A stretch of 50,312 nucleotides of DNA from an uncultured Candidatus Saccharibacteria bacterium (GCA_964367475.1 CAYIXQ010000001.1:1-50312), one strand, 5' to 3'; positions 1 through 47,097 are shown, counted from the stretch's first letter. The notes: generated from the letters alone by a model not told the origin. Numbers and translations are program-made.

Positions 1-110
1 GACCCAGCGAAGCTGGGGCGCCAAAGAATTGGAATCGCTGTTGTGGCTTGAGCCACGATAAGCCCTAATAGCCTTGGGCTTCGTGGCTCAAGCGCGTAAG
101 TCTTAAATAT
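1..110 (-). repeat. Window-truncated inverted copy of the long structured repeat element (same family as 46262..46563; core shared with 28841..28952 and 29528..29639)
   Basis: The reverse complement of 1..110 aligns without gaps to 46262..46370. The last 56 nt are identical, and about 7 mismatches fall in or next to the hairpin at 47..92 (cttgagccacg...cgtggctcaag). The terminal motif gtaagtctta (96..105) matches the gtaagtccta terminus of the full copy. Confidence 0.85.
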
Positions 111-179
111 GATTTAATGAGTCGGCTGTGGATAAACCCATTTTACCTTTCATCAGGATGTTATAAAATAAATGTAAGT

Positions 180-24997: not shown

Positions 24998-26176
24998 ATG
25001 AAGAAAATTTTTACGCGTATTATTGTCGGGTCGATGATAATTTCGACAGCTTTTGTGCTTTCCGGATGGGCGCAAGCCGATTCCACCATCGGTACGAATA
25101 TTTCAACAACGGGCACCCTGACGGTTAAAAGCAACAGCACCTCGGCAGTAAGTTTTCAAAATGCCGCCGGCACTTCAACCCTGGTGCTATTTGATTCTGG
25201 AGCCTTAAGGTTGGGAGTTAATTATGGCTCATCGTTAGATGCTTCGTTTGAAGTGGGTGGGACGGCATCGGCCAACTATTTAGTTACTCGTAACGCAGTC
25301 CAAATTGGCAATAGTGGGGCCACCGTGGCTTATTCTAGATTTGGCACCAGTGCCGCCGGTCATTCTAATTATATAACCGCGGCAGATGATATTCTTATCT
25401 CTGGCGATCTAGAAATTGATGGTTCGGTCTCATTTGCCGGACCGGCCTCTATTTCCGGGATTCTTTTCTTAGCCAATGGCCAAGTCAGACCCCGCACCGA
25501 TGCGACGACTGCCTTCCGATTCCAAAACGCAGTGGGTGATACCTCCGCTCTAACAATTGATACTTCAAATTCCAGGGTAGGAATTGCCGCCGGAACAATT
25601 GACGTTTTCTTTGAAGTTGGCGGCACAGCTTCAGCTAATTACTTGGTTACCGAGAATTCTATTCAAATCGGTAATAGTGGGGCCACGGTGGCTTATTCTA
25701 GATTTGGCACCAATGCTACCGGCCATTCAAATTATATTACTGCTTCTAACGACTTGTTGATTACTGGCGACCTGGAAGTTGATGCTTCCGTGGCTTTTGC
25801 CGGACCGGCCTCTATTTCTGGGATTCTTTTCTTAGCCAATGGTCAAGTTAGGCCCGAAGCCAATTCGACGACCGCCTTTAGATTTCAAAACGCAGCTGGC
25901 GGCACCACGGTTTTGACTGTTGATTCAACCAATACCAGAGTTGGTGTCGGTGCGGTCAATACTCTGGATGTGGCTTTTGAGGTGGCTGGAGTGGCCTCGG
26001 CGTCCGGTGGATTATTTGTGGGTGCCGCGAATAATGCGACTACTAGTATCACTTTTGATAGCATTCATGCTTCGAGGGGCGCTTGCTTAGAAATTAAGGA
26101 TCGGGACGGGGCTGGCTTTACTTATTTGAGGGTTAACGATGGGACTGGTACTTTTAGCACTACGAGCTGTAAATAG
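24998..26176 (+). CDS. Secreted repeat protein (hypothetical surface/fibre-like)
   Basis: It has a signal peptide (MKKIFTRIIVGSMIISTAFVLSGWAQA). Two full ~121-aa tandem repeats plus partial ones follow (FEVGGTASANYLVT.N..QIGNSGATVAYSRFGT...GHSNYITA..D.LI.GDLE.D.SV.FAGPASISGILFLANGQVRP). Confidence 0.8.
   Translation: MKKIFTRIIVGSMIISTAFVLSGWAQADSTIGTNISTTGTLTVKSNSTSAVSFQNAAGTSTLVLFDSGALRLGVNYGSSLDASFEVGGTASANYLVTRNAVQIGNSGATVAYSRFGTSAAGHSNYITAADDILISGDLEIDGSVSFAGPASISGILFLANGQVRPRTDATTAFRFQNAVGDTSALTIDTSNSRVGIAAGTIDVFFEVGGTASANYLVTENSIQIGNSGATVAYSRFGTNATGHSNYITASNDLLITGDLEVDASVAFAGPASISGILFLANGQVRPEANSTTAFRFQNAAGGTTVLTVDSTNTRVGVGAVNTLDVAFEVAGVASASGGLFVGAANNATTSITFDSIHASRGACLEIKDRDGAGFTYLRVNDGTGTFSTTSCK
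25247..25975 (+). repeat. In-frame tandem repeat, unit 363-366 nt, two full units
   Basis: The units start at 25247 and 25610, and the next partial unit starts at 25976. There are long identical stretches such as ggccaccgtggcttattctagatttggcacc and gccggaccggcctctatttc.gggattcttttcttagccaatgg. Confidence 0.85.
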
Positions 26177-27888: not shown

Positions 27889-27918
27889 CTAAAATCCCGT
27901 TCGGCGGGATTTTAGTTT
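27889..27918 (+). terminator. Intrinsic terminator of the secreted-protein operon
   Basis: ctaaaatcccg (27889..27899) pairs perfectly with cgggattttag (27905..27915) across a 5-nt loop, followed by ttt. Confidence 0.7.
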
Positions 27919-27952
27919 GATGCCAGGCGGCTTTTATTATATGGTAGGTTTA

Positions 27953-28819
27953 ATGACTGAACCCTATTTGTCAGTGGTGGTGCCGGTACATAATGAAGAA
28001 AAGCATATTGAAGCTTTTTTGGATCAATTACGTTCTGCCCTGCTCAATTGTCCCTTTGCTTTTGAAGTAATTGTGGTTAACGATGGGTCAACCGATAAAA
28101 CCCATGAACTTATTTTGAAACTTGAGCAGATTAAACTGATCAACCACGACACAAACCGTGGTTATGGCAGCGCTATTAAGAGTGGCATTCTAGCCGCGTC
28201 GGCTGATAAGATTTTAATCACTGATGCTGATGGCACGTATCCTACAGAAAAAATTGCCGATCTTTTGAAATACAGTCAAGACTATGACATGGTGGTCGGC
28301 GCCAGAATTGTAAATAAAACCCACCACTCCAAAGTAAAACGTCTGGCTAAATGGCCCATTCACCTGTTGGCTAATTATCTGGTTGGTTTCAAAATTCCCG
28401 ATTTGAATTCCGGATTAAGAATTTTCCGCAAAGATTTAGCGCTAAAATATTTTCGGCTTTTACCCAATGGTTTTTCTTTAACCACCAATATTACTCTAGC
28501 CTTTTTGGCAGATGGTTATAGAGTAAAATACATCCCCATTGATTATCATAAACGAGTGGGTAAATCCAAAGTTCATCCAATCCGCGACGCGGTAAATTAT
28601 TTGGTGCTGGTAATGAGAATGATCCTTTTTTACAATCCTCTGAAGTTTTTCGTACCCGTGGCCGGAGTATTTTTTGCTCTGTCAGCCTGGTCTTTTCTAT
28701 ATGATATTATTAAACTCGACGATCTTACTGAAAAAACTCTAATCCTTTTTGTGGCGTTTGTGCAGATAACCATTCTCGGATTTCTAGCAGATTTGATAAA
28801 TAAGAGGGGGATGGATTAG
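27953..28819 (+). CDS. GT2 polyprenyl-phosphate glycosyltransferase (GtrB/ArnC/DPG-synthase-like) with C-terminal TM helices
   Basis: LSVVVPVHNEE, VVNDGSTD and TDADGTYP, plus two C-terminal hydrophobic helices (FFVPVAGVFFALSAWSFLY and LILFVAFVQITILGFLADLI). In-frame starts also exist at 27920 and 27941. Confidence 0.8.
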   Translation: MTEPYLSVVVPVHNEEKHIEAFLDQLRSALLNCPFAFEVIVVNDGSTDKTHELILKLEQIKLINHDTNRGYGSAIKSGILAASADKILITDADGTYPTEKIADLLKYSQDYDMVVGARIVNKTHHSKVKRLAKWPIHLLANYLVGFKIPDLNSGLRIFRKDLALKYFRLLPNGFSLTTNITLAFLADGYRVKYIPIDYHKRVGKSKVHPIRDAVNYLVLVMRMILFYNPLKFFVPVAGVFFALSAWSFLYDIIKLDDLTEKTLILFVAFVQITILGFLADLINKRGMD

Positions 28820-28840
28820 ATTCTGCCCGTGGCTACGCAC

Positions 28841-28952
28841 CACTATCATTTTGCCACGACAGCGATTCCAATCCTTTGGCGCCCCTTTATGCAGAATGGG
28901 TCCCCCGCCAAGGATTGAAACCTTCGACGGGAATCGTGGTAAAATGATAGTG
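28841..28952 (+). repeat. Short (112-nt) structured repeat element, copy A; carries an outward promoter-like motif
   Basis: It is 109/112 identical to 29528..29639. The terminal stem is cactatcattttgccacga/tcgtggtaaaatgatagtg and the inner hairpin is ccaatcctttggcg...cgccaaggattg. TTGAAA (28915..28920), a 19-nt spacer and TGgTAAAAT (28937..28945) face the rmlC-like gene. Confidence 0.85.
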
Positions 28953-29012
28953 TGACTAAAAATATGTTTATATACCATTCATAATTTACCAGCTATGATT
29001 GACGGAGTTAAA

Positions 29013-29450
29013 ATGAAAAAAATTATATCTTTTTATGATGACCGTGGTTTTTTTGCGGAAGTTTGCAAGTTTGGCGAGGAGACTTTTCACGAGATAAAAC
29101 AAACCAGTTATAGCGAGACATTGCCGGGCGTCATCAAAGCGTTCCATTGGCACAAACGACAATGGGATGTCTGGTTTTTGGTCAAAGGTTCGGCCCAGGT
29201 TGTTTTATACGATCTCCGAGATAATTCTCCAACCAAGGGTCAAACCGATATTCTCTATCCCAACGCCCGCAATATGCTTCTTATTGCCATCCCGCCAGGC
29301 GTGGCTCACGGCTATCGGGTCCTGGGAACACAGCCGATTGGCATGCTTTATCACACTACTGAACCTTACGATCCTTCTAACCCCGATGAGTATCGAATTT
29401 CTTTTGATGATCAGACTATTGGTTTCGACTGGAGAACAAAAAATAAATAA
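29013..29450 (+). CDS. rmlC: dTDP-4-dehydrorhamnose 3,5-epimerase-like cupin (short RmlC family)
   Basis: DDRGFF, IKAFHWHKRQWDVWFLVKG, YDLRDNSPTKGQ, IPPGVAHGY and YDPSNPDEYRISFDD follow the RmlC motif order. GGAG lies 7 nt upstream of the ATG at 29013; the ORF extends to 28995. Confidence 0.75.
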   Translation: MKKIISFYDDRGFFAEVCKFGEETFHEIKQTSYSETLPGVIKAFHWHKRQWDVWFLVKGSAQVVLYDLRDNSPTKGQTDILYPNARNMLLIAIPPGVAHGYRVLGTQPIGMLYHTTEPYDPSNPDEYRISFDDQTIGFDWRTKNK

Positions 29451-29527
29451 AAAAGGTGGCCGTATAACCACCGTTGGTGCCATCGCAAGTTACCCGTTAA
29501 CATTAGCGGGTATGTAGGATATTAAAT

Positions 29528-29639
29528 CACTATCATTTTACCACGACAGCGATTCCAATCCTTTGGCGCCCCTTTATGCAGAATGGGTCCCCCGCCAAGG
29601 ATTGAAACCTTCGACGAGAATCGTGGGAAAATGATAGTG
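29528..29639 (+). repeat. Short (112-nt) structured repeat element, copy B; terminator-like context
   Basis: It is in the same orientation as copy A, with 3 substitutions. It is followed directly by T7-CATG-T7 (29641..29658), so the 19-bp terminal stem plus U-run has intrinsic-terminator geometry on the + strand. Confidence 0.85.
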
Positions 29640-29722
29640 ATTTTTTTCATGTTTTTTTCCGCTCCCTTTCCCTAGCCGACCGGATCGGCGATCGGATTGC
29701 TCCTTTGTTTAGTACTTTAATA

Positions 29723-29751
29723 TTGCCAATGACCGAAAAAACTGGTAATAT
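29723..29751 (+). promoter_or_regulatory. Sigma70-like promoter with extended -10; predicts a leaderless or near-leaderless mRNA
   Basis: TTGCCA (29723..29728), a 17-nt spacer ending in TGg, then TAATAT (29746..29751). The ATG at 29761 is only 9 nt downstream and has no Shine-Dalgarno. Confidence 0.5.
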
Positions 29752-29760
29752 TTAGTCATC

Positions 29761-30531
29761 ATGGCTAGACAGGCCAACGTTGCGATTTGCGCTGCTTATG
29801 AAATGGGCGTAAAGTTAATCTCAAAAGTTTTAGCCGAATCTTATCCGGTAAAGTTTGTGGCTACTTGTATTCGTGACACTACCGGCGACGAAAAAAAAAT
29901 CGCCAACTTGTGCGCCCAAAACGGCGTTCAGTGTTATCGTCAGATCAGTGCCAATGATCCCGAGTTTATCAAAAAATTAAAAGAAAACGATATTGACCTT
30001 GTTTTCATGCTCTGGTGGCCAGAGATTGTCAAAAAGGATGCCATTCAGGCAGCCAAAATCGGGTGGGTGAATTTACATACTAGCCTTTTACCCTATAATC
30101 GCGGTATGCATCCATATTATTGGGCGATTGTAGATGGCACGCCTTTTGGGGCAACGCTCCATCTAATCAATGAAGGTATTGATTCGGGCCCAATCTTATT
30201 TCAAAAAGAATTAACTATAGATATCACTGATACCGGAGATTCATTGTATAAAAAACTAATACAGACTTGTTTAGACCTTTTTTCCGAATCTTACCCCAAA
30301 ATATTGCGTTTTGATTTTAAACCTAAACCGCAAGCCAATGACCGCGCCACCTTTCACTGGGCCAAGGATATAAATCCACATTCAACCATAGACTTGGAAA
30401 AAACTTACAAAGCGAGGGATTTAATAAATATAATAAGAGCCAGAACTTTTTGGGGTCGGCCATCAGGTTTTTTCTTCCATGAGGGGAAAAAATACTGGGT
30501 GCGACTCCAAATTGAAGAGGCGAGAGAATAA
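29761..30531 (+). CDS. Formyltransferase (Fmt/ArnA N-domain family; probable sugar N-formyltransferase)
   Basis: VNLHTSLLPYNRGMHPYYWAIVDGTPFGATLHLINEGIDSGPILFQ matches the formyl_trans_N catalytic core (N, H, D). Confidence 0.8.
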   Translation: MARQANVAICAAYEMGVKLISKVLAESYPVKFVATCIRDTTGDEKKIANLCAQNGVQCYRQISANDPEFIKKLKENDIDLVFMLWWPEIVKKDAIQAAKIGWVNLHTSLLPYNRGMHPYYWAIVDGTPFGATLHLINEGIDSGPILFQKELTIDITDTGDSLYKKLIQTCLDLFSESYPKILRFDFKPKPQANDRATFHWAKDINPHSTIDLEKTYKARDLINIIRARTFWGRPSGFFFHEGKKYWVRLQIEEARE

Positions 30532-46261: not shown

Positions 46262-46563
46262 ATGATAGGACTTACACACTTGAGCCACGAAGCCCAATAG
46301 TATTAGGGCTTACCATGGCTCAAGCCACAACAGCGATTCCAATTCTTTGGCGCCCCAGCTTCGCTGGGTCCCCCGCCAAGAATTGGAACCTTCGACGAGC
46401 AGGGTTTGGCCAATTTCTTTGTTAAAATCTACGTTTGAGACTCGCCGTACCTGCTAGTACGTCTCGTCTCAAGCCTCGATTTTGCCTGCTGGGCGAAGGT
46501 TCACGCCGAGGAACTTCGGCGGGAATCGCCCTCGAAATTGGCCAAACGCGTAAGTCCTAATAT
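46262..46563 (+). repeat. Long (~300-nt) structured repeat element, full copy; candidate ncRNA or hairpin-type non-autonomous mobile element
   Basis: No ORF; about 52% G+C by hand count. It has perfect terminal inverted repeats taggacttac (46266..46275) and gtaagtccta (46550..46559). Further complementarities are 46404..46417/46534..46547 (14 bp), 46333..46340/46522..46529 (8 bp) and 46389..46403/46485..46499. Local hairpins lie at 46279..46324, 46339..46386 and 46433..46474. The ~75-nt core is shared with the 112-nt copies. Confidence 0.8.
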
Positions 46564-46566
46564 GAA

Positions 46567-47097
46567 GTGACTCTCTACGGGCTTCCGCCCGTAGCATCAT
46601 TCCAGAGCAAGCGTAGCTTGGCCACTGTCTTCTTTGCCTTGCATGGTAATGTATTTTTTGATGATGGCTTCGTTAATACCGACGGTTGAGACGAAATAGC
46701 CGATCGACCAAATTGTCTCAGAATCAAAGTATCCATGCACGAGAAACGGGAATTTCTTCTTCAGCATACGCGCGGTATTGGCCTTGATGATGCTGACGGC
46801 CTGAGCGATGGAAAGCTTAGGTGCAATGGAACAGAGGATATGAATATGGTCTTCGTCGGTGTTGACTTCGATGATGTATATCTCGGGATGCTGACGTTGA
46901 AGACTTTTCACCAAGAAGCAGAGGTAACGGCCAATACCGCGCTTTAAGAGCTTCCGACGGAATTTGGTCGTGAACACGATGTGATAGCGGGTGTGGTAGA
47001 CCGCATGCGTCTGGCGCTGATAGATAATCACCCTTTTACTCTAGCAGAAGACAGTGGCACCTATCCATCTGCGGGCTGCCGCCCGCAGTTTTAACCG
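46567..47097 (-). mobile_element. Minimal IS200-type (IS200/IS605 family, tnpA-only) insertion sequence
   Basis: tnpA is flanked by two similar, same-orientation subterminal hairpins: ctacgggcTTCCgcccgtag (46575..46594) and ctgcgggcTGCCgcccgcag (47069..47088). On the element's top (minus) strand a TTAC lies just 5' of the left end (47098..47101). The exact ends are estimated. Confidence 0.75.
46597..47031 (-). CDS. tnpA: IS200/IS605-family Y1 (HUH) transposase TnpA
   Basis: YHTRYHIVFTTKFRRKLL, the HUH motif DHIHILCSI and the catalytic Tyr region WSIGYFVSTVG. It is 144 aa with a GTG start. Confidence 0.9.
   Translation of the reverse strand: MIIYQRQTHAVYHTRYHIVFTTKFRRKLLKRGIGRYLCFLVKSLQRQHPEIYIIEVNTDEDHIHILCSIAPKLSIAQAVSIIKANTARMLKKKFPFLVHGYFDSETIWSIGYFVSTVGINEAIIKKYITMQGKEDSGQATLALE

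Follow-up and report, generated by a model that had tools for sequence, protein, structure and literature searches.

Sister copies of F1, a hairpin-forming palindromic repeat, probably flank a resident RmlC-like gene in a groundwater Patescibacteria genome

Two nearly identical 112-nt sequences, referred to below as copies A and B, lie on either side of an RmlC-like cupin gene in a 50,312-nt stretch of DNA (the window) from an uncultured Candidatus Saccharibacteria bacterium (GCA_964367475.1). We consider it probable that they are sister insertions of F1, a family of selfish palindromic repeats that form hairpins and encode no protein, placed by an old resident gene and moved in trans as a folded single strand. 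The genome to which the window belongs, G000, is that of a 99%-complete member of the Patescibacteria from groundwater of the Hainich well H51, and comprises 630,527 bp in 38 contigs. We compare it with G004, the nearest genome in the reference set, which represents a different genus of the same family. The first-pass annotation of the window had regarded the two copies as a portable element, and this part of it holds, F1 being a dispersed family with lineage-specific sites.

The copies are direct repeats (28841-28952 and 29528-29639, 112 nt each) identical at 109 of 112 positions. Their description as units that begin with CACTATCATTTT at the 5' edge and end with AAAATGATAGTG at the 3' edge, embedded in unrelated flanking DNA, with junctions lacking a target-site duplication, is confirmed here. 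The features of the locus are as follows.

28841..28952, plus strand: copy A, long (112-nt) form of F1, with arms at 28841-28859 and 28934-28952 and a nested hairpin between them
28860..28933, plus strand: 74-nt core hairpin nested in copy A, CAGCGATTCCAAT...ATTGAAACCTTCGACGGGAA, holding the TTGAAA read earlier as a -35 box
29528..29639, plus strand: copy B, long form of F1, with arms at 29528-29546 and 29621-29639
29547..29620, plus strand: inner core hairpin of copy B
29641..29658, plus strand: T7-CATG-T7 run, flank sequence outside the F1 element

Within each copy, the 19-nt arms, CACTATCATTTT[G/A]CCACGA on the left and TCGTGG[T/G]AAAATGATAGTG on the right, are inverted and 95% complementary; this arm pattern is seen four times in the window, compared to 0.01 occurrences expected from shuffled sequences. 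The copies differ at element positions 13, 90 and 100, of which 13 and 100 are indeed opposed in the terminal stem (G.T in copy A, A/G in copy B), and the T7-CATG-T7 run is found where it had been placed, after copy B. The predicted folding energies are -48.1 kcal/mol for copy A and -45.1 kcal/mol for copy B (z = -6.6 and -5.4, respectively, relative to shuffles). The covariance models of Rfam 15 yield zero matches in the region 28000-30500 at E up to 1.

The basic unit of F1 is a 36-38-bp perfect palindrome, (C)ACTATCATTTTACCACGA followed directly by TCGTGGTAAAATGATAGT(G), in which two arms abut with nothing between them. The long form, of 112 or 113 nt, is the same palindrome with a separate 74-nt hairpin exactly at its center, between CCACGA and TCGTGG. 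As the outermost base pair is variable (C-G, T-A, C-A or T-G), and the copy in ychF is a clean insertion of exactly 12 codons, we take the 36-nt ACTATCATTTTACCACGATCGTGGTAAAATGATAGT to be the constant unit. The arms are 95-100% complementary across F1 copies, and variants in them are often symmetric double changes, a T7-A32 subfamily being present in both G000 and G004; by eye, there is no evident internal palindrome within the arms. The spacer between the arms is 0 nt, 74 nt (G000) or, in the long forms of G004, a different 72-nt hairpin, and at one shared site, C6:20175 in G000 and D20:2426 in G004, the former has a long copy and the latter, a bare palindrome. At two further positions in G004 (D2:34430-34503 and D8:20648-20719) the short palindrome is doubled, in tandem or partly nested.

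The core hairpin is found outside F1 as well. Sequences 75-83% identical to it occupy the hairpin apex within another repeat, F2, at 46327-46404 of the window, at the contig start and on contig 10, and a covariance model of the interior detects it in seven other genomes of the order, with one to four copies each, in unique spacers. Its ends, ACAGCGATTCC and GAACCTTCGA[C/T]GA, are conserved, and the stem between them is variable: in 11 of the 17 pairs both partners are changed, and pairing holds in 91% of cells, compared to 31-58% when the partner is slid. Among its neighbors in other genomes are the rpmI/rplT spacer, the spacer between tRNA-Thr and rpmG, and positions before tsf and before a tRNA-like sequence, the gene names being read by eye, with tRNA-Thr alone confirmed computationally. 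As a side observation, the core (ACAGCGATTCC ... GAACCTTCGAYGA) often occupies the spacer upstream of translation-related genes (rplT, tsf, rpmG, the tRNA-like sequence), and it may be either a small RNA element or a DNA hairpin that is mobile. Copies in other genomes of the order are the following.

L242, 1501-1605: core copy
L233, 1501-1560: core copy
L230, 1501-1576: core copy
L244, 1501-1614: core copy

The 112-nt query has 36 matches in G000. Scanned for the arms, the genome yields 54 matches, which correspond to 6 complete long copies, about 17 38-nt palindromes and at least 7 contig ends breaking in long copies; two further short copies are present on a longer metagenome contig of the G000 population. 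The totals are about 10 long copies and about 20 short ones. The pair of short copies around rplJ is located on a metagenome contig as follows.

L196, 4224-4261: short F1 copy, one of two bracketing rplJ, on a contig joining G000 C25 and C31
L196, 4803-4840: short F1 copy, the other of the two

This pair, and a long and a short copy around mltG, make four F1 copies within 2.4 kb, and the reference assembly breaks there. Small hairpin repeats of this genome explain the fragmentation of such assemblies, a quarter of the examined contig ends breaking within them.

The distribution of F1 is narrow. The palindrome is present in 2 of 105 genomes of the order, G000 and G004, and among 185,579 species genomes G004 is the sole match; phages, plasmids and viral contigs give zero matches. 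In metagenome contigs, F1 copies occur in the H51 well assembly alone, on contigs matching G000 or G004, other matches being single 18-mers that look like chance. At least eight F1 sites of G000 are empty in G004, and G004 has sites of its own, including miaA. The flanks of 23 copies have no direct repeat, and no conserved flank motif is seen in them. G000 (coverage 5-6) and G004 (coverage 2-3) are observed together in one Hainich H51 0.1-um sample (ENA ERZ1292623, contigs L181-L225); with the two populations co-resident, it is physically possible for the repeat or its enzyme to pass between them.

At the apex, copies A and B have a variant, CCCCTTTATGCAGAATGGG, which is private to them, all other long copies having CCCCATTCCTGCGGAATGGG or a close form; therefore they are each other's closest relatives, one having served as the template for the other. 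Such neighboring pairs are found around other genes too, as single genes bracketed by F1 copies include the RmlC-like gene, a PaaX-like gene, rplJ, a small membrane-protein gene and mltG. With 24 intergenic copies placed randomly, 0.8-1.0 pairs in adjacent spacers are expected and five are seen (P about 0.001-0.002), three of these five belonging to one run. Since pairs in adjacent spacers are over-represented, the spread of F1 is local, and it could proceed by short-range transposition or by conversion between neighboring copies via arm homology. A transposase carried between paired copies was considered and rejected, as the bracketed genes (PaaX-like, mltG, gap, rplJ and RmlC-like) encode none. 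At the studied locus, one long F1 copy would have entered the spacer beside the RmlC-like gene in the G000 lineage, and then would have been copied to the next spacer, either spreading locally or converting a short copy already resident there, so that the bracketing of the gene would be an accident of proximity.

F1 would move as a folded single strand, with no duplication of the target, and would be mobilized in trans. The likeliest class of enzyme for this is probably the HUH/Y1 tyrosine transposases of the IS200/RAYT type, encoded in both F1-bearing genomes: two Y1 genes are found in G000, and six RAYT-like genes in G004, each of the latter with a different repetitive extragenic palindrome (REP). 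The genes and repeats of G000 relevant here are listed below.

46597..47031 of the window, minus strand: IS200-type Y1 (HUH) transposase gene (94 bits; PF01797, E = 8e-27), with flanking hairpins of its own, candidate trans-acting enzyme
G000 C14:12862-13581, minus strand: RAYT-like gene, with a dinB-like and a lexA-like gene as neighbors (identified by eye in the translations)
46262..46563 of the window, plus strand: F2 repeat copy with ends TAGGACTTACGCG, the core hairpin being nested at 46327-46404
1..118 of the window, minus strand: partial F2-plus-core copy at the contig start, where the assembly breaks inside the repeat

The REP TTACAGGGGCGCCCTGTAA stands on both sides of the C14 RAYT gene and has 11 copies in G000. 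Neither a RAYT nor an IS200 transposase can be named as the proven mobilizer of F1, as F1 flanks none of them and every RAYT is accompanied by a REP of its own. Phages, plasmids, viral contigs and metagenome contigs yielded no autonomous element bearing F1 ends. The F2 family, about 175 nt long, has 5-bp target duplications elsewhere in G000, which also holds two further families with terminal inverted repeats. Overall, this genome has, beside REP-RAYT pairs, small hairpin repeats of at least five families, with members of one inserted in another. We also observe in the window a 335-nt direct repeat (25247-25581 and 25610-25944) within the gene of a 392-aa secreted-looking protein (24998-26176), corresponding to GTSAAGHSNYITA...DLEIDGSV segments.

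F1 is not restricted to spacers. Six of about 24 complete copies in G000 are localized within coding sequences, and all of these are short copies in intact housekeeping genes.

secA, C15:4958-4995
ychF, C4:6180-6217
tgt, C8:6129-6166
rnhB, C20:5266-5303
mnmA, C14:5286-5323
mpg, C6:3059-3096

In secA, ychF, tgt and rnhB the palindrome is read as [S/T]L[S/L]F[Y/S]HDRGK[M/I]IV, a 12-13-residue peptide, and the frame is kept open; the mnmA copy is decayed, and the mpg copy is read in another frame, with its TAA mutated away. By inspection, one of the three phases of F1 is stop-free and, the unit being a palindrome, either orientation yields the same peptide, LSFYHDRGKMIV. The intact copy of tgt adjoins a decayed second one within approximately 39 extra residues. 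G004 additionally has copies in miaA and in a membrane-protein gene. Six F1 sites are common to the two genomes: secA, the region upstream of the PaaX-like gene, C6/D20, C5/D6, mnmA and mpg, the copies at the last three being decayed.

Several of these observations weigh against F1 being simply a selfish repeat mobilized in trans. No Y1 or RAYT gene, nor any gene except housekeeping ones, is flanked by F1 arms. The palindrome in secA adds no length to the gene: it replaces an equal-length native stretch, xxDxAYxQREKQxG in 20 other genera, whose DNA is neither palindromic nor F1-like, and plain insertion does not account for this. The same comparison disqualifies secA as the birthplace of F1, other genera having no palindrome or F1-like DNA at that position. 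Moreover, at three shared sites (secA, C6/D20 and the spacer preceding the PaaX-like gene) the palindrome is identical in G000 and G004, while the 90-nt flanks are only 38-65% identical (46-63% in the case of secA). Such identity across genera is not what simple selfish decay would leave, and candidate causes are conversion between copies, exchange between co-resident populations, and a protein constraint or host function.

One could regard the palindrome chiefly as a host cis-element under selection, for instance a hairpin for RNA processing or a site bound by a dimeric protein of the DNA-binding or nucleoid kind, with mobility being secondary. The identity at the three shared sites agrees with this, as do the same consensus in two genera, the preservation of pairing by symmetric double changes, and the conserved place directly upstream of the PaaX-like regulator gene in both genomes. 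Still, we consider it quite improbable, as the mnmA, mpg and C5/D6 copies are decayed, many sites are lineage-specific, and recent exchange and conversion between populations of the same well could also keep copies identical. Of the 105 genomes of the order, 2 have F1 and 57 have PaaX-like genes, and this lack of co-distribution also removes the PaaX-like regulator from consideration as an F1-specific partner. A somewhat less unlikely, though still doubtful, possibility is that F1 represents a new minimal kind of repeat, a 12-codon palindrome that gives one stop-free peptide in both orientations and so can be written into essential genes, and that is held identical across genera by templated conversion or by a dedicated binding or processing protein, which would make it more than a selfish insertion in decay.

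The other two alternatives concern the RmlC-like locus itself, the genes of which are as follows.

27917..28819, plus strand: gene of a GT2 glycosyltransferase, the upstream neighbor, with its stop 21 nt before copy A
28995..29450, plus strand: RmlC/FdtA-like cupin gene of the dTDP-sugar isomerase family (Pfam PF00908, E = 9e-21; 151 aa, shortened to 145 aa if the ATG at 29013 is used)
29455..29472, no strand assigned: small GC-rich hairpin GGTGGCCGTATAACCACC, just past the RmlC-like stop codon, not part of the element and upstream of copy B, listed by the scan as terminator-like for the minus strand alone
29761..30531, plus strand: sugar N-formyltransferase gene, the downstream neighbor

The start of the RmlC-like gene had been set at the ATG at 29013; the one at 28995, 42 nt downstream of the end of copy A, is likelier, as the resulting N-terminus, MIDGVKMKK, resembles MIEGVKVKK of G004. 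In the single-gene cassette model, of the integron or composite kind, the gene would be excised or exchanged through recombination between the two direct copies. These are 687 bp apart and could recombine, deleting the gene, and exactly one gene is situated between them. The gene order in G004, however, is identical (GT2, RmlC/FdtA-like, formyltransferase, DegT, GT1; 80-87% amino acid identity), and the RmlC-like protein, at 83%, falls within the range of its neighbors. The spacers on either side of it in G004, 39 and 123 nt, have no F1 element, with the caveat that the spacers of G000 and G004 are too diverged for a base-for-base alignment of the empty sites. The presence of the same five genes without the elements indicates that the RmlC-like gene is ancestral, and relatives having the gene without the elements are what the first-pass annotation had itself named as a refutation. 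By Pfam, the RmlC-like gene is followed by the sugar N-formyltransferase and a DegT aminotransferase, a layout which we take to be that of a 3-formamido-dideoxyhexose pathway; hence the gene belongs with its neighbors, being functionally tied to the two downstream ones. Judged by this comparison of gene content and order, it has long resided in the operon, one for dTDP-sugar modification. Besides, rplJ and mltG are bracketed in the same manner, and none of the bracketed genes is of the cassette type. No deleted or circular form is seen among assembled contigs with the flanking genes, all of which retain the gene or break at the repeats. The element ends, CACTATC and GATAGTG, are not attC core sites; no search was made for an integrase. 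On this gene-order comparison we regard the cassette reading as refuted, with hardly any probability left to it.

The second alternative is that F1 has been exapted here as a portable promoter and terminator, so that copy A drives the RmlC-like gene from TTGAAA...TGGTAAAAT, and copy B, with the T-run after it, terminates transcription. The extended -10-like TGGTAAAAT is indeed present in the 3' arm of copy A, as proposed; the spacing given for the motif does not stand, as it reads TTGAAA-N16-TGGTAAAAT rather than having 19 nucleotides before TGg. The right arm of copy B reads TGGGAAAAT, and the loss of the first T of the -10-like hexamer in it is as reported earlier. The motif fits the extended -10 form; apparent promoters of G000 have the sequence TGGTATAAT, and in one case TTGACA is found 17 nt upstream. 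Moreover, a transcription start would fall at the edge of the element, 42 nt before the ATG at 28995, the PaaX-like gene of G004 has an F1 copy directly adjoining its ATG, and copy B forms a hairpin of -45 kcal/mol with seven T one base further on. As a known parallel, Correia elements have been shown experimentally to be able to act as promoters and RNase III sites (PMC10969869).

On the other hand, TGGTAAAAT is intrinsic to every arm of about 45 F1 copies and, on both strands, is directed outward; the copies within secA, ychF and tgt have it too. The distance from TTGAAA (28915-28920) to TAAAAT (28940-28945) is 19 nt, TGG included, which is outside the 16-18 window, and the site is not listed by a standard scan. 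TTGAAA itself lies in the inner core hairpin and is TTGGAA in other core copies. Long copies are directed toward the next gene start in six cases out of nine, and an orientation bias was rejected, this ratio being not significant. A T-run follows a minority of F1 copies only (flanks counted by eye), and that at copy B is flank sequence; tested as an intrinsic terminator, F1 does not have the T-run as a family property, the base of its stem, adjoining the T-run, is AU-rich, and the scan lists neither copy A nor copy B. The operon of G004 lacks the elements, and in G000 the formyltransferase gene has its own promoter-like site, TTGCCA-17-TG-TAATAT, at 29723-29751, outside copy B. We consider exaptation unlikely: as the motifs are generic to the repeat and the T-run belongs to the flank, they look like by-products of the element. 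The outward TGGTAAAAT and the strong hairpin may nevertheless alter neighboring transcription as a side effect, which is plausible given that known repeats such as Correia elements act as promoters and RNase III substrates. A separate association of a repeat with a promoter-like motif is seen three times in G000 (C8:2707-2745 and the regions of C8:18612 and C25:2592), where a REP-like palindrome is followed by GGGAAAA(G/A)TG-TGGTATAAT, that is, fused to an extended -10-like motif.

The result for the locus is deflationary, the bracket consisting of two repeat insertions, with promoter and terminator motifs generic to the repeat. At the level of the genome, the nested repeat families, with the in-frame F1 copies in essential genes and those identical across genera, provide a tractable case for studying the tolerance and upkeep of selfish DNA in tiny genomes of the symbiont-like kind.

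Compared to known systems, F1 has many features of miniature transposable elements with inverted repeats (MITEs), that is, terminal inverted repeats, a non-coding sequence of 36-113 nt with no open reading frame of its own, and about 30 copies in 630 kb; it fails the features of target-site duplication and of a parent insertion sequence with the same ends, none of which was found. Palindrome-associated elements derived from IS200/IS605, like F1, cause no target duplication and are hairpin-dependent, and Y1 transposases are encoded in G000. The subterminal hairpins of these elements differ between the two ends, and their insertion is 3' of a tetra- or pentanucleotide that is fixed; unlike them, F1 has one symmetric hairpin and no conserved flank motif is seen. 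Correia elements (CREE/NEMIS) of Neisseria have 26-bp ends and duplicate a TA target. F1 differs from them in having no target duplication, in the existence of the bare 36-38-bp palindrome form, and in being a composite of two nested modules. What the two have in common is a non-coding sequence of about 100-150 bp with terminal inverted repeats, a mostly intergenic location near gene starts, long hairpins, and sigma-70-like motifs in the ends (PMC10969869).

Rickettsia palindromic elements (RPE), like F1, are palindromic, are inserted in frame inside unrelated housekeeping genes, and are translated (PMC10969869). They are about 150 bp long (PMC10969869), compared to 36 bp, or 12 codons, of F1, which is four times smaller, unrelated in sequence, and a perfect palindrome that encodes the same peptide both ways. 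Besides, unlike RPE, some F1 copies at shared sites remain identical across genera, and F1 has no match outside two Patescibacteria genera. With the REP/REPIN-RAYT systems F1 shares inverted arms, a variable spacer, a size of about 100 bp, hairpin-preserving changes, vertical persistence, and co-residence with Y1/HUH enzymes (bioRxiv 10.1101/2021.07.10.451892). The arms of F1, in contrast, do not look like short palindromes by eye, and it has no cognate RAYT; F1 copies occur inside genes, whereas REPINs are almost exclusively extragenic (bioRxiv 10.1101/2021.07.10.451892). The clustering of F1, F2 and the core resembles that of BOX, RUP and SPRITE of Streptococcus pneumoniae, small families that are also inserted into one another (PMC10969869). 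Sequence and host phylum are unrelated, and the nesting of F1, F2 and the core is base-precise, at hairpin apices. Overall, F1 works like a MITE or a REP, and sits in genes like an RPE, yet fails defining tests of each.

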